A stretch of DNA of 64,000 bases from Tepidiformaceae bacterium (GTDB lineage Bacteria > Chloroflexota > Dehalococcoidia > Tepidiformales > Tepidiformaceae): NCBI GenBank assembly GCA_965203115.1, contig OZ241859.1:817964-881963 (forward strand). The letters run 5' to 3'. Positions 16,265 to 26,803 of this stretch are shown piece by piece. A program made the translations under genes and the position numbers. The notes beneath the pieces were generated by a model, which did no database searches, was not told the DNA's origin, and saw nothing but the letters and a program-made list of their open reading frames with translations. Within the stretch, counting starts at the first letter, position 1. Each line of letters begins with the position of its first letter.

Positions 16265-18157
16265 TCAGTTGCCCCCGCCGGAGGCGGCGGCTGGCGGCGG
16301 GTCGCTGCGGACGACGAGCGGGGTGAGCGGGGGCAGGCCGCCGGCGAACAGCTCGGCGAAGGGGCGATTCACGGAGTCCGGCGCGCCCGTGGTGTACGAG
16401 ACCCACTCGCCCTCGTTCAGCGCCCAGGCGGCGGACAGGGCGTGCTCGCGCGCGCACTCGGCCAGCCCCTCCACGCCGCCGCCCTCGTAGAGCACGAGGC
16501 TGAAGCCCCCGGCGACCTCGCCCCGCAGGCAGCCGGACCAGTCCGCGGGCGTGGCGAGCGCGCCCACCGGGTCCTCGCTCGCCGGTCCCTCGCTCGCCGC
16601 AACCAGCGGCGTGAGCGAGGGCACGCCCTCGGGGTAGAGCGCCGCGAAGGGCTCGTTGACGAAGCCCGGCGCTTCGGGGAGGTAGGCGACGTAGCGGCCC
16701 TCGTGCAGGGCGTAGAGGCCCCGCACGCCCCGGCTCTCCGCGCAGGCCGCCAGCTCCTCGACGCTCCCGCCCTCGAAGACGAGGAGGCTGAAGCCCGCCG
16801 CCAGGGCGCCCTTCAGGCAGTGCCCCCAGGACTCCTCGGCGGTGACCTCCAGAGCCACGCGGTAGACGCGCGTGCGGCTGCCGTCCGCCGACGTGACGGT
16901 CACGGTGATCTCCGGGACGCCATCGAGCGCGACCTGGTGGCCCGCGGTCCGCCGGTGGGTATCGGGCGGCTCGACCACGACGGTGGTCCGCCGCTGCGCC
17001 GCCTCGGCGGTCACGGTGGTCGTCGTCACCCCCTCGCCGGGTACGCCCGCGTACTCCGTGCGCAGCGGCGAGAACGCGCCGATCGCGACGCCCTCCAGCG
17101 CGAGCGAGGCGAGGCGCGCGTCGATGGCGTCGGGCATGTTGTAGGTGTAGACCTTGCCGTCGTTCGCGTCTGCGACGTACATGAGGGCGCCGTCGGACCA
17201 GATGCCGCGCGGGCTGTTGTTGCCGACGCGGCCGAGCTCCGTGAAGTCCTCGTCCCCGACCCGCTCGAGGCTGGCTCCCTCACCTGCCGCTTCAACCTCC
17301 TCGCGGGCAGGGAGGCGGTAGGCGAAGAGGCGCGGGGGACTCGAGGGGTCGGAGACCCAGAGCGTGACGCCGTCGGACCAGATGCCCCGGGGGGAGCCGT
17401 TGGCGGGGTCGAGCGCGTACTCGGCGAGGAGGGCGCCGCTCTCGAGGTCGTAGGCGAAGACGGCGTTGCGGCGTTCATCGAGGACCCACATGGTCTTGCC
17501 GTCGGACCAGATGCCACGGGCGTCGGCGTTGCGCTCGCCGAGCTCGATGTCACGGTCCGCGAGGCGCTCGCCGCTGGTGAGGTCGTAGGCGAAGAGGCGC
17601 TCGCGGCCGCTGTCGCCGACCCACGCGCGCCCCTTGCCATCGGACCAGATGCCGCGGGGCGCGCGGTTGCGCTCGTCCAACTCGAACTCGCGCTCCTCGA
17701 CGCGCTCACCCGTCTTCAGATCGTAGACGTAGGCGGCGTCGGCGGCGCCGTCGGCGTTGTGGAGGAGCCAGAGCACTGCCCCGTCGGACCACATCCCGGT
17801 AGGCGTGCCGTGATCACCGTCCAGCGCCTCGATGTCGTGCTTCGCGGTCCACTCGAAGTCGGCCTCGCTCGGCCGGGGAGGGGCCGTGATGGCGGGCCCG
17901 ACCGGCGGCTGTGGCTGGTCCGGCGGCTCCGGGTCCACGTTGTTCTCCGGGGGGTCCGGCGGCTCCGGGTCCACGTTGTTCTCCGTGTTCTCGGTGTTCT
18001 CGGTGTTCTCGGTGTTCTCGGTGTTCTCCGGGTGGTCCGGATGCGCGAACGCCTGCTGGGGCAGCAGCAGGGCCAGGCCGAGGGCCGCCGTCGCAAGCGC
18101 GAGCAGCAGGGCCGGAGCGGGGGAACGCCGGGAGAGGAAGGAGGAGGCCCGCCGCAC
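16265..18157 (-). CDS. Secreted multi-domain repeat protein (signal peptide, acidic ENT/PEPP linker, five GIWSDG repeats, cadherin-like beta-sandwich, two paired-Cys C-terminal domains)
   Basis: GTG start at 18157 with RBS gggagg. The signal peptide is ...ALLLALATAALGLALLLPQQAFA. Five roughly 45-50-aa repeats are centred on (P)RGIWSDG..(L/M)WV.D....(F/Y)AY.L. The segment LASLALEGVAIGAFSPLRTEY...ITVTVTSADGSRTRVYRVAL is cadherin-like. Two homologous C-terminal modules run W..CL(K/R)G...GFSL(L/V)..EGG.VE.LA.CA. Confidence 0.8.
   Translation of the reverse strand: MRRASSFLSRRSPAPALLLALATAALGLALLLPQQAFAHPDHPENTENTENTENTENTENNVDPEPPDPPENNVDPEPPDQPQPPVGPAITAPPRPSEADFEWTAKHDIEALDGDHGTPTGMWSDGAVLWLLHNADGAADAAYVYDLKTGERVEEREFELDERNRAPRGIWSDGKGRAWVGDSGRERLFAYDLTSGERLADRDIELGERNADARGIWSDGKTMWVLDERRNAVFAYDLESGALLAEYALDPANGSPRGIWSDGVTLWVSDPSSPPRLFAYRLPAREEVEAAGEGASLERVGDEDFTELGRVGNNSPRGIWSDGALMYVADANDGKVYTYNMPDAIDARLASLALEGVAIGAFSPLRTEYAGVPGEGVTTTTVTAEAAQRRTTVVVEPPDTHRRTAGHQVALDGVPEITVTVTSADGSRTRVYRVALEVTAEESWGHCLKGALAAGFSLLVFEGGSVEELAACAESRGVRGLYALHEGRYVAYLPEAPGFVNEPFAALYPEGVPSLTPLVAASEGPASEDPVGALATPADWSGCLRGEVAGGFSLVLYEGGGVEGLAECAREHALSAAWALNEGEWVSYTTGAPDSVNRPFAELFAGGLPPLTPLVVRSDPPPAAASGGGN
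17917..18029. repeat. In-frame coding tandem repeats: 36-nt unit x2, then 9-nt unit (gtgttctcg) x5
   Basis: ggtccggcggctccgggtccacgttgttctcc occurs at 17917 and 17953. gtgttctcg/gtgttctcc occurs five times across 17985-18029. These encode ENNVDPEPPD x2 and (ENT)5. Confidence 0.9.
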
Positions 18158-18308: not shown

Positions 18309-19541
18309 TCACCGGTGCGTCACGCGCCGCGCTTGACTCCTGCTCGCCTCCTTGCGGCTCAGTCGGTAGCGCGTGATGCCGGCAGCGAGCGTGGCGATGG
18401 TAACGACGAGGGCGATCATTCCCGCGGACACGCCTGCGTCCTGGCCGTTGACCAGTCCGGCGTTGCCTGTGTCCGGGACGGCAGGGGCTTCGGCGCTGGC
18501 GGCCACGATGGTGAGGGTTGCCGTCGCGACCCGGTCTTGCACGCCGCCGCCCAGCCCCACGGTGCCGCAGGGCGCCACGCCGTCCTCCGGATAGTCCCCC
18601 TCGGGGCCGGCCCAGCACGAGATCGCGACCAGTTCGTGGTCGCCGGCCGGCAGATCGTCGGGCAACACCAACGTCGCGGTGAACGCGCCGTCGGGCGTGA
18701 TGCCCGGAGGGTCGATGTGGATGTGCTCGGCGATCCACTGGCCCGATTCAGAGTACCTGCCGGGATGGAGCGAACTCGACTCGGGCTCGACGCTCGCCAC
18801 GCCTGCAATCGGCACGCCGCCGATCGTGATGGTCGAGCTGTAGATGAAGGAGCCTTCCTCTTCCACCCGGAAACCGGAGCCCTCGACCGTGATGGTGTCG
18901 CCCGGCCGCGCCTCGCTCACGCTCAGGGTCAACTGCGCTCGCGGTTCCTCGTCGTCGCCCTCCGCCCGGGCTGAGCCGGGCAGAATGGTGAGGGTTGCGG
19001 TTGCAACGCGGTCCCTGACGCCGCCGCCGAGGCCAACCGTGCCGCAGGGCGCGACGCCGTCCTCGGGGTAGTCCCCGTCGGGCCCGGCCCAACACGAGAC
19101 CGCGACCAGGTCGTGGTCGCCGGCCGGCAGATCGTCGGGCAGCACCAACGTCGCGGTGAACGCGCCGTCGGGTGTGGTGCCCGGAGGGTCGATGTGGATG
19201 TGCTCGGCGATCCACTGGCCCGATTCAGAGTACCTGCCGGGATGGAGCGAACTCGACTCGGGCTCGACGCTCGCCACGCCTGCAATCGGCACGCCGCCGA
19301 TCGTGATGGTCGAGCTGTAGATGAAGGAGCCTTCCTCTTCCACCCGGAAACCGGAGGCCTCAACCGTGATGGTGTCGCCCGGCCGCGCCTCGCTCACGCT
19401 CAGGGTCAACTGCGCTCGCGGTTCCTCGTTGTCGCCCTCCGCCCGGGCTGAGCTGGCAGGGACCGTCAGCGCCGCGGTCAGCATCGCGGCCAAGGCCAGC
19501 AGCCAGGTCAGGACGCGGGCTGGCCGCACCGGTAGTCGCAT
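18309..19541 (-). CDS. Secreted/surface protein with two tandem 159-aa domains and a C-terminal sorting-signal-like tail
   Basis: ATG at 19541 with RBS aggagag. The signal peptide is MRLPVRPARVLTWLLALAAMLTAALTVPASSARA. The C-terminus is AVPDTGNAGL...VSAGMIALVVTIATLAAGITRYRLSRK, that is an LPxTG-like motif followed by a TM helix and a basic tail. Confidence 0.8.
   Translation of the reverse strand: MRLPVRPARVLTWLLALAAMLTAALTVPASSARAEGDNEEPRAQLTLSVSEARPGDTITVEASGFRVEEEGSFIYSSTITIGGVPIAGVASVEPESSSLHPGRYSESGQWIAEHIHIDPPGTTPDGAFTATLVLPDDLPAGDHDLVAVSCWAGPDGDYPEDGVAPCGTVGLGGGVRDRVATATLTILPGSARAEGDDEEPRAQLTLSVSEARPGDTITVEGSGFRVEEEGSFIYSSTITIGGVPIAGVASVEPESSSLHPGRYSESGQWIAEHIHIDPPGITPDGAFTATLVLPDDLPAGDHELVAISCWAGPEGDYPEDGVAPCGTVGLGGGVQDRVATATLTIVAASAEAPAVPDTGNAGLVNGQDAGVSAGMIALVVTIATLAAGITRYRLSRKEASRSQARRVTHR
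18499..19452. repeat. 477-bp tandem duplication (x2) inside the CDS
   Basis: The landmark cccgggctgagc occurs at 18965 and 19442, an offset of 477. Positions 18702-18879 are identical to 19179-19356. The flanks toward the low-coordinate side of each unit are clearly more diverged. Confidence 0.9.
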
Positions 19542-19643
19542 ACGTACTCTCCTGTCGTAGCCGTGTGACTGAATCGCATTTTCCTGCACTGGCCGGCAAC
19601 CGTGGGTGTGCGTCCGTGTAGGTCTTTGTGCAGTTGAGTATGG

Positions 19644-19845
19644 GCGATCCACGGATGAACTCAGGGCGAAGTCTTGCCTCGATTCAATGAAGCAGTGATG
19701 AATTCCGCCCCGAACGCTAGATTCATCCCCACACAGGCCCGTTCCCGGGGGGGTGACGAGTTGGAGAACGCCGACCAACGGCCCCCGGGAGCGGAGCCCC
19801 CGGGAGAGCGCCCGCTCCCTGACCGACGCGCCCTACGCCGTGATC
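19644..19845 (+). repeat. Copy A of the conserved intergenic module plus a decayed 5' stub of a kinase paralog
   Basis: It aligns to 21381-21669. The ATG is replaced by TTG, and about 83 nt are missing between two GGAGA microhomologies. Similarity stops at 19845, just before the stop of the minus-strand oxidoreductase gene. Confidence 0.8.
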
Positions 19846-19861
19846 GCCAGGGCCACTCTCT

Positions 19862-21235
19862 TCATGGTGACAAGTCTCCTCTCTGGGACTGTCCTCCAAC
19901 TTTCAGCAGGCCCAGGGCCTCTTCAGCCGCGGCAAGGCCGCTGGCCAGGGCTCCGTTGACCAGGGGAACTCGCGTGTAATCGCCCGCCAGGAAGAGGTTG
20001 GGGATTTCCTGTCCGAGCTCGCGGCGGCTGTTCGCCACCGCCTTGAACATCCCCGGCGGCCCCTTGCACACCGCGATCTTCCACCGGTAGACGCGCGTGA
20101 ACAGCCCGTCGTCGTCGCCCGGAAAGGCCGAACCGGGCGGCGGGTTTCGGCGAATGTCCCGCAGCAACTCGCGCTTGACCTCCTCATCGTCCAGTTCCAG
20201 CAGTTGCTTTGCGCGCTCGCGCCCCGCGATCAGGTCCAGCATGCTCTTGCCCGGTGGCACGCAGCCCGGCAGGTTGATGGACCGGTCCAGCACCAGGGGA
20301 GTCTCGTCCTGCGGGTAGATTGCGCCGTGCCAGCCGGGGGGAAGCGGCGGACGGTCCAGTCCCATCACCAACCGGCACGCGGAGGAGTAGGTGACGTTGC
20401 CCAGCGTCTCCCGGACCCTTTGTGGAAGGCCGGGGATGATCTCCAGCGCGACCGGAGCGGGAACCGCGCAGATAACCGCGTCGGCCTCGATGGTCTCGCC
20501 GTCGATCACCACGCCCGCCACGCCCCCCTCCCCGACGAGTACCTCCCTCACAGGCGTCGAAACGCGGGTGACGTCTGCGCACGCATCGCGCAGGGCGCGG
20601 GCAAGTGCGCCCGCCCCCTTCTCCGGCTGGATGAGCTTGTGCGGTCGCAGAAGCGTGTTGGCCAGGTACCCCCTGATGTACGCCTGGCTGGAGGAAGCGA
20701 CATAGTCCAGCACGCCATTCTCGACGAACCCGCTGAGCGTGACCCGGAGAGACTCGGACGCGCCCGTCTTCTCCAGGTACTCGCCGAAGGTCTCATCTCC
20801 GTCGATCTCGGCCAGGCGGCTGTTGCTGGCGAACGTCAGGTAGTCGGCCTGGCGAAAGACCTTATGGATCAGCTTCATCGCCCCCCAGGACAGCAGTCCC
20901 ATGTTCGCAAACGCGCTCAGGTTGCTGAGCACGCCGGGAATGGACGGAGCAGCCGTGGTTACATGCCACCGTCCGTCTTTGTACCAGCCGAGCTTCTGGA
21001 TCGAGGGGACCAGTGGCACGCCTAACTCCTCGCAGATGCGAAACACCGCGTCGTAGGAGTAGCAGAAGAAGTCCACCCCCGTATCGATGAGACACCCGTC
21101 CACCTCGTCGGCCGCAAGCCGCCCACCGACATGATTCTCGGACTCCAGGAGCAAAGCATCGACACCACGCTTCTTCAACGTGTATGCCGCGCCCAGCCCG
21201 GCTGCGCCCCCGCCGACTATGATGACCCGCTTCAT
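19862..21235 (-). CDS. FAD-dependent oxidoreductase (amine oxidase/phytoene desaturase-like family)
   Basis: The dinucleotide-binding N-terminus is MKRVIIVGGGAAGLGAAYTL and the C-terminus is FLAGDYTRVPLVNGALASG. The start was chosen at ATG 21235; the track start at 21328 is the alternative. Confidence 0.8.
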   Translation of the reverse strand: MKRVIIVGGGAAGLGAAYTLKKRGVDALLLESENHVGGRLAADEVDGCLIDTGVDFFCYSYDAVFRICEELGVPLVPSIQKLGWYKDGRWHVTTAAPSIPGVLSNLSAFANMGLLSWGAMKLIHKVFRQADYLTFASNSRLAEIDGDETFGEYLEKTGASESLRVTLSGFVENGVLDYVASSSQAYIRGYLANTLLRPHKLIQPEKGAGALARALRDACADVTRVSTPVREVLVGEGGVAGVVIDGETIEADAVICAVPAPVALEIIPGLPQRVRETLGNVTYSSACRLVMGLDRPPLPPGWHGAIYPQDETPLVLDRSINLPGCVPPGKSMLDLIAGRERAKQLLELDDEEVKRELLRDIRRNPPPGSAFPGDDDGLFTRVYRWKIAVCKGPPGMFKAVANSRRELGQEIPNLFLAGDYTRVPLVNGALASGLAAAEEALGLLKVGGQSQRGDLSP

Positions 21236-21320
21236 GTCCGAAGCCGCGGGGACGGCGCGTCCGTGCCGCCGGAGCCGCGGAGGTTCTTCAGGAAAGTCAG
21301 TGCGCGCATACAGGTGTCCC

Positions 21321-21475
21321 TCGGCCACGTTTGCCCGGCCCGTGGGGCGTACTCGCGAACTGCAACCGGCGAATCGTCTAGCGATCGATGAATGAACTCA
21401 GGGTGAAGTCTTGCGCCGATTTGATGAAGTAGTGATGAATTCCGCCCAGAACGCTAGAATCATCCCCGGGCAGGC
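21321..21475 (+). repeat. Copy B of the conserved intergenic module (between the oxidoreductase and the fused kinase/regulator gene)
   Basis: It aligns over its full length with copy C (25430-25585) and over its right half with copy A. Stop codons occur in several frames. Confidence 0.85.
21422..21460 (+). promoter_or_regulatory. Putative promoter with 11-bp-phased direct repeats (TGATGAA-N4-TGATGAA) overlapping the -35 position and a TAGAAT -10-like hexamer
   Basis: TGATGAA occurs at 21422-21428 and 21433-21439, and TAGAAT at 21455-21460, 15 nt after the second repeat. The RBS aggggagg and ATG 21502 follow. GATGAA-N5-GATGAA and TAGA(A/T)T are retained in copies A and C. Confidence 0.4.
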
Positions 21476-21501
21476 ACGTACGTTCCCAGGGGAGGTGACG
21501 A

Positions 21502-23874
21502 ATGGAGAACGCCGACCAACGGGCACCGGGAGCGGAGCCGCCGGGAGACCGCCTCTCCCGCCTCAGCCAGGCCAGCCTCCGCATCAACGAGAGCCTGGAC
21601 GTGGACACGGCCCTCCAGGCCGTGATGGAGAGCGCCCGCTCCCTGACCGACGCGCCCTACGCCGTGATCATCACCCTGGACGCGTCGGGCGCGGTCGAGG
21701 ACCACCTCGTCCTGGGCCTCGAACCCGACGACGTGGAGCGGCTGTGGCAGGCGCCCCAGGGGAAGCTCTTCTTCGAGTACCTCAACGCCCTGCCGGGTCC
21801 GCTGCGGGTGGGACACCTGGAGGAGTTCACGGGGTCCATCGGTCTCGGGGAGTTCCGCTCGCCCGTCAAGCTCACCGCCTTCATGGCGGCCCCGATCCTG
21901 CACCAGGGGGTGCGCTCGGGCCACATCTTCGTGGGCAGCGTCGAGCCGGGACGGGAGTTCTCCCGGGAGGACGAGGAGACGCTCGTGATGTTCGCCTCCC
22001 AGGCGGCCCTGGTCATCGCCAACGCCCGCACGCACCGCGAGGAGCGACAGGCGCGGGCGGACCTCGAGACGCTGGTCAACACCTCGCCCGTGGGCGTCGC
22101 CGTCTTCGACGCCCGCACGGGGGCGCCGATCTCCTTCAACCGCGAGGCCATGCGCATCGTGGACGGGCTGCGGGACGAGGGCCAGAAGCCGGAGGACCTC
22201 CTCGAGGTGCTGACCTGCGTGCGTGCGGATGGCCGCGAGGTCTCTCTCGCGGAGCTGTCGCTGGCGGAGCTGTTCAGGGAGGGGGAGACGGTGCGGGCGG
22301 AGGAGATCGTGCTGCGCGTTCCGGACGGACGCAGCATCACCATCCTGCTCAACGCGACCCCGATCCGCGCCGAGGACGGCGAGCTGGCTTCCTTCGTCGT
22401 CACGCTCCAGGACATGAAGCCGCTCGAGGAGCAGGAGCGGCTGCGGGCCGAGTTCCTGGGCATGGTGAGCCACGAGCTGCGCATGCCCCTGACCTCCATC
22501 TGGGGCTCGGTGATGGCGATGTTGGAGTCGCCGGAGGCCGACCCAGCCGTGCTGCGCCAGTTCCAGCGGATCGTCCTCGACCAGGTCGGCGGCATGCGCA
22601 CCCTGATCGACGACCTGCTGGACGTGGCCCGCATCGAGACGGGCGCGCTGCCGGTGGACCCGGAGCCGGCGGAGGTGGCCGTGCTCGTGGACCGGGCCAG
22701 GAACGCTTTCGCCAGCGCCGGGGGCCGGAACGAGCTCGCCCTCGAGGTGGAGCCGGACCTGCCCCTGGTGATGGCCGACCGCAGGCGCATCGTCCAGGTC
22801 ATCGGCAACCTCCTGTCCAACGCGGCGCGGCACTCTCCGGAGTCGTCCGTCATCCAGGTGTCCGCCGTGCGCGAGGGCGGTCACGTCGAGGTCTCGGTGA
22901 CCGACCAGGGCCGGGGGATACCCGCCGAGGACCTGCCGCTGCTGTTCCGCAAGTTCTCCCGCCGGGAGGACAGCGACGTGGGGGGCGACACCGGCCTCGG
23001 GCTCGCCATTTGCAAGGGCATCGTGGAGGCCCACGGGGGCCGCATCCGGGCCGAGAGCGACGGGCCCGGCCTGGGAGCGCGGTTCGTCTTCACCCTGCCG
23101 GTGGTCGAGGGGGCCGGTCCGGCCCGCCGCCCCGCCGCCCGCGAGCGGGACGAAGGTCAGTCGGCGGGAACGGTCCTGGTGGTGGACGACGACCCCGTCG
23201 TGCTCAGGTCGGTGCGGGAGATCCTCGCCGGCGCGGGCTTCCGCGCGGTGGTGACCGCCGACCCGGAGGAGGCGCTGGCGCTGGTGGCGGAGCACAGCCC
23301 CCGCTTGGCCCTGCTGGACCTGATGCTGCCGGAGCGGGACGGGGTGGAGCTGATGGGGGACATCCTCGCCGCCACCCGCATCCCCGTGATCTTCCTCTCG
23401 GCCTACGGCAGGGAGGAGGTGGTCGCCGGGGTGCTGGAGCAGGGCGCCACCGACTACATCGTCAAGCCCTTCTCGCCCACGGAGCTGGTGGCCAGGGTGC
23501 GGGCGGCCCTGCGCCGCGCCGGGGAGCCGCAGCGCCTCGCTCCCGAGGAGCCCTTCGTGCTGGGCGACCTGCGCATCGACTACGCCACCCGCAGGGTGAC
23601 GGTCTCGGGACGGCCGGCGCCGCTAACGCCCACCGAGTTCGATCTGCTGGCGACGCTCTCGATGGAGGCGGGGCGGGTGGTGCCCCATGACCGCCTGCTG
23701 AGGCGGGCGTGGAGCCCGGGCAAGCCGGGGAACCTGCGCGTGCTGCGCACGCACCTCAAGCACCTGCGCCGCAAGCTGGGCGACGACGCCAGCAACCCCA
23801 CCTACATCTTCGCCGAGCCCCGCGTCGGCTACCGGATGCCGGCGGGCGAGACGGCCCCGGCCGGCGAGCGCTGA
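21502..23874 (+). CDS. Soluble fused two-component protein: GAF - PAS - HisKA/HATPase_c - REC - OmpR-type winged-helix DNA-binding domain
   Basis: 790 aa with no TM segment. The H-box is SHELRMPLTSI and the G-box GLGLAICKGIVEAHGG. The REC domain reads VLVVDDDP...LLDLMLPERDG...KPF. The wHTH reads LTPTEFDLLATL...LRTHLKHLRRKL...VGYRM. Confidence 0.9.
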   Translation: MENADQRAPGAEPPGDRLSRLSQASLRINESLDVDTALQAVMESARSLTDAPYAVIITLDASGAVEDHLVLGLEPDDVERLWQAPQGKLFFEYLNALPGPLRVGHLEEFTGSIGLGEFRSPVKLTAFMAAPILHQGVRSGHIFVGSVEPGREFSREDEETLVMFASQAALVIANARTHREERQARADLETLVNTSPVGVAVFDARTGAPISFNREAMRIVDGLRDEGQKPEDLLEVLTCVRADGREVSLAELSLAELFREGETVRAEEIVLRVPDGRSITILLNATPIRAEDGELASFVVTLQDMKPLEEQERLRAEFLGMVSHELRMPLTSIWGSVMAMLESPEADPAVLRQFQRIVLDQVGGMRTLIDDLLDVARIETGALPVDPEPAEVAVLVDRARNAFASAGGRNELALEVEPDLPLVMADRRRIVQVIGNLLSNAARHSPESSVIQVSAVREGGHVEVSVTDQGRGIPAEDLPLLFRKFSRREDSDVGGDTGLGLAICKGIVEAHGGRIRAESDGPGLGARFVFTLPVVEGAGPARRPAARERDEGQSAGTVLVVDDDPVVLRSVREILAGAGFRAVVTADPEEALALVAEHSPRLALLDLMLPERDGVELMGDILAATRIPVIFLSAYGREEVVAGVLEQGATDYIVKPFSPTELVARVRAALRRAGEPQRLAPEEPFVLGDLRIDYATRRVTVSGRPAPLTPTEFDLLATLSMEAGRVVPHDRLLRRAWSPGKPGNLRVLRTHLKHLRRKLGDDASNPTYIFAEPRVGYRMPAGETAPAGER

Positions 23875-24227
23875 GCGCGGCCCCAGCGCCGCAACGATTC
23901 CGCGCGCTCCCTCGGCTTCGGCGGCTTCACCCTCCCCTCCCCGTAGGGGTGTTCCGCTTGCTCGCGGCGCCCATGCGCCACTGAGGCGCGCGCGCGGGCC
24001 ACACCCGTTGGGGAAGAGCTAGACCCTCCTCCTGTGGTGAATCCTCTGTCTTGGCATGGCGCGGCTCTTCCACGGAACTCATCGGCTGCCGCCATCGCCC
24101 GACCGTCCATCTGTGGGGCCTTCGGTTCCGTTTGCTGTCGGTGTACGGCATATCTGGGCTCAGGCGTGGTAGACCCCAAAAGCAAACTGATCCGATGAGC
24201 CGTTCTGGACTTTCGTCAGCGTGCCTC

Positions 24228-25370
24228 TTAACGGGATGCTTGAGCCGCCATCGCCGCCAGCGTTAGCTCCTGCGCCCGCACGAGTTCGTCCTCCGTGAAG
24301 CACGAGAATACCGCCCTGGTGCCCTCGGCAATAATGCGCAGAGCAGCGGGAGGCATCGCCTCCATGGCAGCGGGGTCGGAGGAGAGGAGGGGCAGGAACT
24401 CGGAGTTCTCCACGGCGTAGTTGGCTATACAGTTGGCGGACTCCGCAGTGAGTTCGCCGAGCACGCCCTCGATGGCTGCTACGTAGAGCGACGCGATGGT
24501 CGCGGGTGAGAGACAGGCCGCTGCGGGAGCGGCAGCCCTGACTCCGTCCAGCGGCTTGGCGGTGAGCAGAGTATTCATCTGCTGCTCGGAGAGAATCTCA
24601 CGCATGCACGCTTCTTCGGCATGAGGAAGCACAGCGACAAGGTCCGCCCCCGTCAACGAGGAGGCGCTGTCGATGGCGGCGTACGCCTGTAGGCCGAGTC
24701 GGAAACTCTCGGCATCCGTCAGGCAGTCCCAGTAGGCAAGGATGAATTCGTGCCTCTTACTGGTGCTGGTTGTCTCTTCTCCCTCCCACTCAACTCCCAT
24801 CTGGATGTAGGCGTTTTCAGGGTGTTGGAGCGAGAGGTCCGTGATGCACCTGCGACTGTCCTCGGAGCGTCCACCAGCGAAGGCATCGTTGGCCGCGACA
24901 ACGAACAGCACGACGTTCTCCGATTCCATGCAGCCGACCAGGGTGGCGGTGGCTTCGGAGCTGCCGCTCTGCAGGAGCGGTGCGGCGAGGAGTACCGCGT
25001 AGAGGGTTTCACCGACGGCGGCTCGGATGCAGTCCGTCTCGTCAGTGGAGAGCCGGTCCATCAGGTCCTTGCCGGTGGACGACTCGTCGATCACGAAGTC
25101 GCGCATCGATACTGTCGATTGCGCCATATCCGGCGTCGGGGACGGCGCAGGGGTAGGCTCCGGTGTCGGGCTCGGCGTGGCAGTGGGTGGAAGCGGCGTG
25201 GCGGTGGGCGTAGGGGTAGGCTCCGGTGTCGGGCTCGGCGTGGCGGTGGGCGGAAGCGGCGTGGCGGTGGGCGCAGGATCAGGTTCGCCCGCGCAGGCGG
25301 CGCTAACGGCAATCAGCGTGGCGAAAGCGACTACCAGGATAACGAGTCTCGGTTTGACTGCGTGGGTCAT
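24228..25370 (-). CDS. Lipoprotein with Pro/Thr-rich linker and repeated Cys-containing helical modules (hypothetical)
   Basis: ATG at 25370 gives the lipobox signal MTHAVKPRLVILVVAFATLIAVSAACAG. A PT linker follows. Recurring motifs include ...ETDCIRAA, SRRCITDL, EEACMREI, SANCIANY and VFSCFTED. By eye the gene has more A/T-ending codons than its neighbours. Confidence 0.7.
   Translation of the reverse strand: MTHAVKPRLVILVVAFATLIAVSAACAGEPDPAPTATPLPPTATPSPTPEPTPTPTATPLPPTATPSPTPEPTPAPSPTPDMAQSTVSMRDFVIDESSTGKDLMDRLSTDETDCIRAAVGETLYAVLLAAPLLQSGSSEATATLVGCMESENVVLFVVAANDAFAGGRSEDSRRCITDLSLQHPENAYIQMGVEWEGEETTSTSKRHEFILAYWDCLTDAESFRLGLQAYAAIDSASSLTGADLVAVLPHAEEACMREILSEQQMNTLLTAKPLDGVRAAAPAAACLSPATIASLYVAAIEGVLGELTAESANCIANYAVENSEFLPLLSSDPAAMEAMPPAALRIIAEGTRAVFSCFTEDELVRAQELTLAAMAAQASR
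25149..25274. repeat. 63-nt coding tandem repeat x2 (TATPLPPTATPSPTPEPTP[T/A]P)
   Basis: Units start at 25149 and 25212 (aggggtaggctccggtgtcgggctcggcgtggc...). Confidence 0.9.
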
Positions 25371-25429
25371 CGTTGTATCCGTATTTCTGGCAAATGCTCG
25401 GGGCAGGCATTGGCGGCCGGGACCGCCCA

Positions 25430-25585
25430 TCGGCCACGGTTCCCCGGCCCCGTGGGGCGTACAGGCAACCTGCAACCGGCGAATAGTCTAGCGATCGCTG
25501 AATGAACTCAGGGTGAAGCCACACCCTGATTCGATGAAGTGACGATGAATTCCGCCCCGAACGCTAGAATCATCCCCGGGCAGGC
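25430..25585 (+). repeat. Copy C of the conserved intergenic module
   Basis: It aligns with 21321-21475. Homology ends at gggcaggc, where a helicase fragment begins. Confidence 0.85.
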
Positions 25586-25588
25586 CTC

Positions 25589-26254
25589 GAGCTCGTGGAG
25601 TTCCCGACGGCCTGCTGGTTTGAAACCCACTACAGCGTCTACACCATGAGGCAGGCGTCACGGCACTCCTGGCGCATCGGGCAGACGGACCCCGTCCAGG
25701 TCGTCTTCATGGCCTACCGGAACACCCTTCAGGCGGACGCGCTCAAGCTCGTGGCGCAGAAGCTCCAGTCCTCCCTCGCCGTCGAGGGGGAGTTGCCGGA
25801 GGACGGCCTCGCCGCCTACGGGGACGACGGCGACGACCTGATGCTCCACGGCAAGATCGTCATGAACCTCGGCGGGGAGCTTTGGGCCTTCGTGAAGCCG
25901 AGGCGGCTCGGCGCGCTTCTAGCCTCGGACTCCGGCGTGTGGCTGGAGCGCGACCCGGACACGGTGCGCGAGCCCGACCTCGCCTTCACGGCGGCCGAGC
26001 GGCTCCCGCTCGATGCCTGGAACACGGGCTACTCCGAGGTGGTCCCTGACTTGGTGGTCGAGGTCGCATCTCCCAGCGACAGCCGTCGCGAACTCAACGA
26101 TAAGGCGCAGATGTGGCTGCGCCACGGTCCGGCTTCTGAGCTGCCGACGCGCCGTCGAGTCGTGGGCGCCCCATGTCGCCATGCCCCGTGCGAGGCACCG
26201 ACAGGTTTGCGTCGGGAGCCCGCACCGGCAACGGTGCGAACACGCACGCTGTAA
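25589..26254 (+). pseudogene. Chimeric remnant: C-terminal fragment of an SNF2/DEAD-like helicase fused to a degraded Uma2-family (DUF820) endonuclease
   Basis: ACWFETHYSVYTMRQASRHSWRIGQTDPVQVVFMAYRNTLQADALKLVAQKLQ is a helicase motif VI region. It is followed by ...REPDLAFTAAERLP...VVPDLVVEVASPSDSRRELNDKAQMWLRHG, an Uma2 PD-(D/E)xK core. There is no N-terminal helicase part, and the tail is out of frame. Confidence 0.6.
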
Positions 26255-26299
26255 GGGCGAAGGCAGGGCCCGCGCGAGAGACCAGGAGAGCCGGGTGCG

Positions 26300-26803
26300 C
26301 TAGCGCCCCCGGTTGTGCTCCATCGTCGCGTGGTTGGCCAGGATCTTCGAGGTCACGGCCCGCAGGGTCTCAAGCTCCGCCGGGCTGACGCCCGCCAGCA
26401 GCCTGGTCTCGTGCTGGGCGACGCGCTCGCGAAGCTCTTCCGTGAGCTCCTTGCCCTGGGGCGTCAGCCTCAGGAGCACGACCCGACGATCGTCGGTGCG
26501 CCGCCGCCGCCGCAGAAGCCCGCGGTCGACGAGCTTCGAGACGAGCCGGCTGATGCGCGGGGCATCGGCCGGAAGCACGTTGGCGAGCTGCGTCACCGTC
26601 CACTCGTTCTGCTCGGAGAACGACTTCAGGATCGAGAACTCCATGTTGATGAGGCCCGCCGGCGCGATTTGCCGTTCGGACCCCTTCACCACGGCGCTCA
26701 CAAGTTGCGAGACGCCCTCCGCTAGTTCAGGAGCCGACGACCCTTCATCCGAAAGGTCCCCTGCCCGTTCTGTATCAGCTGTATTAGTTATGTTCGTAGA
26801 CAC
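26300..26803 (-). CDS. MarR-family transcriptional regulator
   Basis: 167 aa with a winged HTH (WTVTQLANVLPADAPRISRLVSKLVDRGLLRRRRRTDDRRVVLLRLTPQG). Confidence 0.85.
   Translation of the reverse strand: MSTNITNTADTERAGDLSDEGSSAPELAEGVSQLVSAVVKGSERQIAPAGLINMEFSILKSFSEQNEWTVTQLANVLPADAPRISRLVSKLVDRGLLRRRRRTDDRRVVLLRLTPQGKELTEELRERVAQHETRLLAGVSPAELETLRAVTSKILANHATMEHNRGR

Follow-up and report, generated by a model that had tools for sequence, protein, structure and literature searches.

What controls a regulatory gene whose promoter has no recognizable -35 element and carries direct repeats in its place? The question is raised by a 64,000-nucleotide stretch of DNA from a Tepidiformaceae bacterium (GenBank assembly GCA_965203115.1, contig OZ241859.1, positions 817,964 to 881,963), hereafter called the window, in which a short intergenic element that we call module B precedes the gene of a fused sensor kinase and response regulator ending in an OmpR/PhoB-type winged helix-turn-helix (wHTH) domain. 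Comparison of module B with its relatives in other genomes leads us to the view that it is probably an autoregulated back-to-back divergent promoter of about 90 bp, bound by two tandem dimers of the very regulator that it precedes.

An earlier note on this DNA had described two TGATGAA repeats, a TAGAAT hexamer, a ribosome-binding site and an ATG, and on direct reading of the letters all of the coordinates given for them are correct. TGATGAA at 21422-21428 and TGATGAA at 21433-21439 lie 11 bp apart from start to start and are followed by a 15-nt gap before TAGAAT. This pair is real but represents only the promoter-proximal half of the element, since an in-phase upstream pair (AATGAA at 21391-21396 and GGTGAA at 21402-21407) had been missed. 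Module B has four half-sites on the same strand with spacings of 11, 21 and 11 bp, giving a consensus of RRTGAA at 0, 11, 32 and 43 bp, and all four fall on the same face of the helix as two tandem pairs. The features of the module and its gene are:

21375-21380, minus strand: weak -10-like hexamer for the divergent promoter, reverse complement TAGACG, in which the last base is G
21391-21396, plus strand: half-site 1, AATGAA, which shares bases with a GATGAA at 21387-21392; six close copies agree in 5 of its 6 columns
21402-21407, plus strand: half-site 2, GGTGAA, 11 bp after site 1
21423-21428, plus strand: half-site 3, GATGAA, 21 bp after site 2
21434-21439, plus strand: half-site 4, GATGAA, 11 bp after site 3, over the -35 position, 6 of 6 columns invariant
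21440-21454, plus strand: conserved 15-nt spacer TTCCGCCCAGAACGC, with a G at -14 that resembles an extended -10
21455-21460, plus strand: -10 hexamer TAGAAT of the kinase-regulator promoter, 15 nt past site 4
21488-21495, plus strand: ribosome-binding site aggggagg, kept in the orthologous loci L081 and L082
21502-23874, plus strand: fused sensor kinase/response regulator of 790 amino acids, Pfam order GAF-PAS-HisKA-HATPase_c-REC-Trans_reg_C

The repeats are rare in their surroundings. Within the window GATGAA-N5-GATGAA with at most one mismatch is matched three times against 0.03 expected, and the relaxed RRTGAA-N5-RRTGAA five times against 0.01 expected, every one of them within module B or its two further copies, modules A and C. 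No canonical sigma-70 promoter was returned by a scan of positions 19000-26500, and the hexamer at 17-nt spacing from TAGAAT is GTGATG, which by hand matches TTGACA at 3 of 6 positions. The proximal repeat therefore occupies the place of the missing -35. On the other side of the module, the minus-strand hexamer starts 16 nt to the left of site 1 (a 10-nt gap), within the window of 14-17 nt that we find for the family as a whole (see below).

The protein read from ATG 21502 is intact. Pfam matches to Response_reg (1.6e-25) and Trans_reg_C (4.9e-18) were obtained, GAF starts at residue 33, and the phosphorelay residues are intact, with H324 in the H-box, the N, G1 and G2 boxes, and in the receiver the acidic pocket, the phospho-acceptor D606, S633 and K655. 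No transmembrane segment was detected in the kinase-regulator (maximum Kyte-Doolittle 19-residue mean 1.42), which is apparently soluble, and no Pfam match to HTH_18, the AraC/XylS-type output domain, was found in it. The REC-wHTH half is closest to MtrA (4.6e-42), KdpE, RegX3, BaeR, PrrA and Mycobacterium tuberculosis PhoP, with E values of 5e-42 to 1e-28 for its structurally solved relatives, and the recognition helix corresponds to residues 744-759 (NLRVLRTHLKHLRRKL). Within the window we found no other wHTH protein and no paralogue of the kinase-regulator.

Conservation of the repeats in orthologous loci, the comparison for which the earlier note had asked, held. Both L081 (93%) and L082 (82%) keep four half-sites and a -10, arranged as GGATGAA-N4-GGTGAA followed by GGATGAA-N4-TGATGAA-N15-TAGAGT in the former and as AATGAA-N4-GATGAA followed by CGATGAA-N4-TGATGAA-N16-TAGTAT in the latter. 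When six close module copies were aligned, 19 of the 24 half-site columns were invariant, as compared with 1 of 15 between the two pairs and 1 of 5 between sites 3 and 4, and this pattern of half-sites against intervening DNA looks footprint-like. The spacer from site 4 to the -10 is also conserved (11 of 15 columns). Ordinary promoter spacers show no sequence conservation, and the G at -14 together with a T-rich 3' extension of the half-site accounts for just part of what is seen here; a spacer-related TTTnGsCCAAnnnGC recurs in distant members including those of other phyla (L001, L002, L016, L026, L027, L050, L061 and L072).

The same architecture recurs across the family of fused regulators. 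For this comparison we used 84 upstream regions and tests of spacing and layout that make no assumption on the repeat word. A 7-mer direct repeat (at most one mismatch) at exactly 11 bp was present in 59 of the 84, against 15.3 ± 3.7 and a maximum of 22 in dinucleotide shuffles, and smaller peaks appeared at 10, 21 and 22 bp. The four-site layout, defined as spacings of 10-11, 21-23 and 10-11 bp and scored out of 28, reached the threshold of 23 or more in 41 of 84 promoters, as compared with 6 of 420 shuffles and, among 166 segments drawn at random from the same loci, 5; at 24 or more the counts were 23 of 84 promoters and none of the 420 shuffles. Of the 41 clear cases, 27 have a [T/C]ANNNT hexamer that starts 21-24 nt past the start of the site-4 7-mer, and 26 have an opposite-strand -10-like hexamer that starts 14-17 nt before site 1, with a background of about 1 per offset on either side. 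Since both -10 positions are fixed, the conserved unit appears to be a back-to-back divergent promoter, in the order minus-strand -10, about 9 nt, sites 1-2, about 14 nt, sites 3-4, 15-16 nt and plus-strand -10. A -35 is missing in essentially all members and the distance from site to -10 is tightly fixed.

Searches tied to a particular word or motif behaved differently. A strict NATGAA-N5-NATGAA pattern used as a family test had 0 matches in 80 more distant loci, a false negative that arises because the repeat word differs between lineages. An nhmmer search anchored on the spacer and -10 retrieved only 26 loci, being too insensitive for a 34-nt motif, and a picker of the most repeated hexamer was swamped by GC-rich words and dropped. 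Nine metagenome-wide matches to TGAAGNNNNGATGAATTCSGCCC were all due to chance, without layout, -10 or kinase gene. As to the start regions of the transcripts, the proximal pair of a SAR202-like subgroup (L010, L012, L014 and L015) lies directly against the kinase start codon (TATGGT-N6-ATG), which suggests a leaderless mRNA and a different operator geometry. The group with the word CTGTGAG (L046, L055, L057, L060 and related loci) has its divergent ATG 7 nt past an opposite-strand TAAAAT and looks leaderless.

These data point to the following mechanism. A signal sensed by the GAF and PAS domains would trigger phosphotransfer from His324 to Asp606 within the kinase dimer, and the two tethered winged-helix domains would bind head to tail, so that each pair of half-sites takes up one dimer. 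At the proximal pair (21423-21439) the regulator would occupy the -35 region of a promoter whose -10 is good (TAGAAT, with G at -14) and which lacks a usable -35. It would thereby govern its own production, most probably as an activator of the class-II kind known for OmpR/PhoB proteins. The distal pair (21391-21407) at about -23 to -39 of the opposite-strand promoter would make the divergent gene respond to this signal too, and modules A and C, in which only the divergent genes for secreted proteins are intact, would extend the local regulon. The core of the earlier proposal, that the repeats at the -35 are the operator of the adjacent OmpR-type domain and serve autoregulation, is thus supported at the level of sequence by orthologue conservation, by recurrence in the family and by the helix covariation described below.

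The sign of this control deserves discussion, as the same operator and regulator could also act by repression: the promoter would fire from its -10 and G at -14 without a -35, and regulator bound to the proximal pair would occlude sigma region 4 or the alpha C-terminal domain. Many members have an extended -10-like G at -14 (tGC-TAGAAT or tGG-CATAAT), the proximal pair of L010 and L015 overlaps the presumed -10 and start region, and a tethered dimeric regulator could bind constitutively, an issue raised for the hybrid two-component systems (HTCSs) of Bacteroides (PMC11253607). Repression would have to accommodate the nearly complete absence of the -35 in a family that holds the distance from site to -10 tightly fixed. 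Such a combination is the signature of class-II activation as known for PhoB, PhoP and OmpR, and in the OmpR family autoregulation is positive in most systems. We consider repression a live but rather unlikely alternative and retain positive autoregulation as the preferred reading.

If the adjacent protein is what binds the repeats, the question is whether its recognition helix and the repeat word change together. The helix core THLKHL is found with the word GATGAA; THLMHL and THLMRL with GGTAAA, GATAAC and GTAACTT; SRRVRTAAKQL with CTGTGAG; VRAMRTIVSSL with TATCAAC; RPMRTIVxKL with TGTGACC and TGTAACC; MRTLRTHVRRL with GATGAC and GGTGAC; and MSPMRTxANKL with GTCACTT. Helix distance and word distance are correlated with a Mantel r of 0.30 that none of 2000 permutations reached, in a test that ignores phylogeny; because it carries no phylogenetic correction we take the covariation to be supportive rather than conclusive. 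Likeness among a promoter's own four sites is 73%, as compared with 51% to the sites of other lineages, which indicates that the four sites change in concert, and unless binding by the adjacent protein is under selection, such concerted replacement is difficult to account for. Within the helix, variability is highest at positions 2, 4, 8, 10 and 11 (2.3-2.8 bits), with Arg6, Arg13 and the hydrophobic positions fixed. Paralogues of one genome also carry distinct pairs of helix and word, as in OZ220720 with GTTACAT, GTAACTT and GTCACTT.

The covariation bears on a further explanation, namely that the repeats are a genuine OmpR-family operator bound by a stand-alone or paralogous response regulator encoded elsewhere and not by the fused protein. 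Related genomes have several family paralogues, and only 64 kb of a contig of about 3.1 Mb is in view. Against this, changes in the repeat word follow those in the adjacent protein's recognition helix, both across lineages and between the paralogues of one genome, the module always travels with the fused gene, and the 64 kb contain no second wHTH that we could find. Binding by another regulator seems to us very improbable, and the fused protein remains our candidate for the factor that occupies both pairs.

Modules A and C read as the earlier note had them, with CAATGAA-N4-TGATGAA and TAGATT at 19685-19723 in A and CGATGAA-N4-CGATGAA and TAGAAT at 25532-25570 in C. Their features are:

19637-19723, plus strand: module A, with sites GATGAA 19654, GGCGAA 19665 (decayed), AATGAA 19686 and GATGAA 19697, and TAGATT at 19718-19723
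19637-19642, minus strand: -10-like hexamer of module A (reverse complement CATACT)
19761-19845, plus strand: pseudogene stub of the kinase 5' end joined to module A, residues 1-17 and 43-56 with an internal deletion (tblastn and translation)
25485-25570, plus strand: module C, with sites AATGAA 25501, GGTGAA 25512, GATGAA 25533 and GATGAA 25544, and TAGAAT at 25565-25570
25485-25490, minus strand: -10 of module C (reverse complement TAGACT)

A, B and C are paralogous copies of one module of about 147 nt (identity 86% for B and C, 63% for B and A), and since they are segmental duplicates of shared ancestry their agreement is not independent functional evidence. The stub beside A holds a 43-nt exact repeat of the kinase gene (19803-19845 equals 21627-21669); copy C stops about 15 nt beyond its -10, after which there are gene fragments only. 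Neither copy drives an intact gene on the plus strand, and each has an intact gene on the minus strand. The claim that the regulator also controls the genes next to A and C could thus hold for one side only: because the plus side holds nothing but fragments, the genes that these copies could control are the divergent minus-strand genes for secreted proteins. That the repeats have no regulatory role at all, being a by-product of segmental duplication or of low-complexity AT-rich DNA, the end of a mobile element or a structured RNA, would suit three duplicates of which two face gene fragments, but it is hardly credible given that phasing, layout and the distances to two -10 boxes are conserved throughout the family, far beyond what shuffles and same-locus segments show, and that the orthologues have the footprint pattern. 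Two such candidates were examined separately and rejected: for a structured RNA or riboswitch there was no Rfam match at E ≤ 1 and the fold z-scores of leader and module (+0.6 to +1.3) were no better than those of shuffles, and for a mobile element no flanking inverted repeats were present.

The surroundings of the duplicates show signs of rearrangement. Past copy C, the open reading frame (ORF) at 25595-26254 joins a helicase-like C-terminal piece (WRIGQTDPVQVVFMAYRNTLQADALKLVAQKLQ...) to a partial Uma2-family endonuclease domain, and this chimera points to a rearranged and decaying region. L081 has an extra copy that parallels copy A, consisting of a module, about 25 nt of the gene 5' end and a decayed -10, and lying just upstream of a divergent gene for a 272-amino-acid secreted protein. 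Both in the window (19761-19845) and in L081 (2065-2090) the extra module and stub stand directly beyond the minus-strand gene that separates the stub from the intact kinase gene, an arrangement suggestive of recombination through the module that repeatedly inserted or replaced the divergent partner gene. At least eight other loci have additional lineage-specific site pairs close to the kinase gene.

Several points weigh against the autoregulated divergent promoter that we favor. About half of the family promoters, notably those of the 'WLVRD/N' helix group, fall below the four-site threshold, and L010 and L015, in which the proximal pair adjoins the start codon, show that the geometry does not hold throughout. 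Module B itself has a poor divergent -10 (TAGACG). The G at -14 (cGC-TAGAAT in module B) is extended -10-like and would make activator-free firing possible, which would favor repression. The conserved spacer between site 4 and the -10 is unexplained by the model and could reflect a second factor. Covariation of helix and word is confounded by the shared descent of gene and promoter, and paralogous regulators are probably encoded elsewhere in the genome, outside the 64-kb window.

If the module serves two promoters, its second client should be the divergent gene. The partners in the window are:

18309-19541, minus strand: divergent partner of A, a 410-amino-acid protein with a signal-peptide-like N-terminus and internal Ig-like repeats
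19862-21235, minus strand: divergent partner of B, flavin amine oxidase-type (Pfam Amino_oxidase, 2.1e-47)
24228-25370, minus strand: divergent partner of C, a 380-amino-acid putative lipoprotein with a Pro/Thr-rich linker

No homology was found among the divergent partner genes, except between those of L081 and L082, and no synteny of the window with L081 beyond the kinase gene. All of the close divergent partners start with signal-peptide-like segments. Pfam searches with 40 candidate divergent ORFs gave fn3 (6), cadherin-like (3), PKD, FlgD_ig and a few FAD enzymes as the commonest classes; the partners are heterogeneous, with a mere tendency to fn3, cadherin-like and Ig-like proteins, and ORF calling is noisy in DNA of 70% GC. 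To the left of module B, a stretch of about 85 nt shares 84% identity with the left flank of L081 (window 21248-21340 against L081 5608-5700), while the divergent genes beyond differ, being an amine oxidase in the window and a 1140-amino-acid fn3 protein in L081. This points to a swap of partner genes with its boundary near the start codon. The shared flank is in frame with the downstream gene in both genomes, as an N-terminal extension (V/M)AExHLYARTxxPxEPP, and could be a conserved leader or an alternative start.

Some of the secreted proteins are themselves repetitive. Within the partner of A (18500-19276) two 300-nt copies are 91% identical and lie 477 nt apart from start to start, probably a recent duplication of an Ig/TIG-like domain (weak TIG match). 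A 63-nt tandem repeat at 25131-25256 (89% identical) codes for the Pro/Thr-rich linker of the putative lipoprotein beside C. Further to the left a minus-strand gene (16265-18157) encodes a 630-amino-acid secreted protein of surface type, with five internal repeats spaced by about 140 nt and Cadherin-like and SGL-type matches.

From an evolutionary point of view the gene and its promoter appear to have travelled together. The best 120 database matches to the kinase-regulator are all full-length and 68-93% identical, and the family is very large, with at least 571 loci among species-representative genomes, which often carry several paralogues each. Most members come from uncultured Dehalococcoidia/Chloroflexota, others from Latescibacterota, Gemmatimonadota, Caldilineaceae and Acidimicrobiia, and since members from these several phyla are 56-80% identical and share the same promoter layout, a horizontal spread of gene and promoter is suggested. 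The SB0661 and SB0664 bins are listed among sponge-associated genomes (PMC7883664), and an origin in sponge microbiomes is supported indirectly, for some of the loci only. Our literature search found no description of the fused family or of its operator.

Autoregulation by OmpR/PhoB proteins through phased direct repeats at the -35 is textbook knowledge and the principle itself is not new. What goes beyond it is a very large family of soluble two-component systems in a single polypeptide with a winged-helix output, a promoter that is a conserved and compact bidirectional unit of four half-sites, and the joint change of half-site word and recognition helix, which offers hundreds of adjacent cognate pairs of protein and DNA. 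Specificity rules for OmpR/PhoB regulators could be read from such pairs. The module may, in addition, be the means by which uncultured bacteria of symbiont type bring variable, secreted, eukaryote-like surface proteins under sensory control. We offer, as a tentative idea about which we have more doubt than conviction, that module and gene form a portable and self-contained cassette of sensor, regulator and promoter that has been copied repeatedly within genomes and passed from phylum to phylum among uncultured bacteria, at least some of them sponge-associated. Its paralogues would be insulated from each other by co-diversification of helix and operator, and its divergent slot would be refilled time and again with different secreted or surface proteins (fn3, cadherin-like, Ig-like), leaving scars of module and gene stub such as copy A. 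If this were true, the family would amount to a natural look-up table for the recognition code of OmpR/PhoB winged helices, because regulator and operator are always adjacent.

How does the module compare with known systems? The earlier note had called it Pho-box-like, and this is borne out by the geometry and not by the sequence or the distance to the -10. As with PhoB at the Pho box of E. coli, 11-bp-phased direct repeats replace a missing -35, the -10 is good and the regulator combines a REC and a winged-helix domain. The consensus of the Pho box is CTGTCAT-N4-CTGTCAT and the last repeat of pho promoters lies about 10 bp from the -10. Here the half-sites are RRTGAA ((T/C)GATGAA), the last repeat is 15-16 bp from the -10, there are four half-sites and two divergent promoters, and the regulator is fused to a kinase with GAF-PAS sensing, with an amine oxidase and secreted proteins but no phosphate-regulon genes as neighbors. 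Given these differences in half-site sequence, -10 distance and context of regulator and genes, the module is not a Pho box proper. Its phased half-sites, their overlap with a poor -35, their conservation above the surroundings and the cognate, intact REC-wHTH protein are consistent with an operator that is OmpR/PhoB-type and class-II-like in function and geometry.

The closest relatives of the REC-wHTH half bind comparable sites. KdpE is reported to recognize two 6-bp direct-repeat half-sites (PMC3264566) and M. tuberculosis PhoP recognizes 7-bp direct repeats with a 4-bp spacer (PMC4832192), the same 11-bp phasing and hexamer-N5-hexamer geometry as in module B. KdpE, M. tuberculosis PhoP, MtrA and RegX3 differ in being stand-alone regulators with separate membrane kinases and other half-site sequences. 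In its polypeptide the family resembles the HTCSs of Bacteroides, membrane proteins that unite kinase, receiver and an AraC/XylS-type DNA-binding domain in one chain and thereby keep their DNA-binding domains attached to a kinase dimer (PMC11253607). The HTCSs have a membrane segment, an AraC/XylS helix-turn-helix and polysaccharide-utilisation loci as targets, whereas the family described here has no transmembrane segment, senses through cytoplasmic GAF and PAS domains and ends in an OmpR/PhoB winged helix. In the arrangement of its sites the module recalls ompF and ompC. At these promoters OmpR binds as cooperative dimers to several tandem pairs of half-sites phased at about 10 bp, with the proximal pair near the -35. 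What sets module B apart is a helical turn left unoccupied between its two pairs, which apparently serve two promoters facing in opposite directions.

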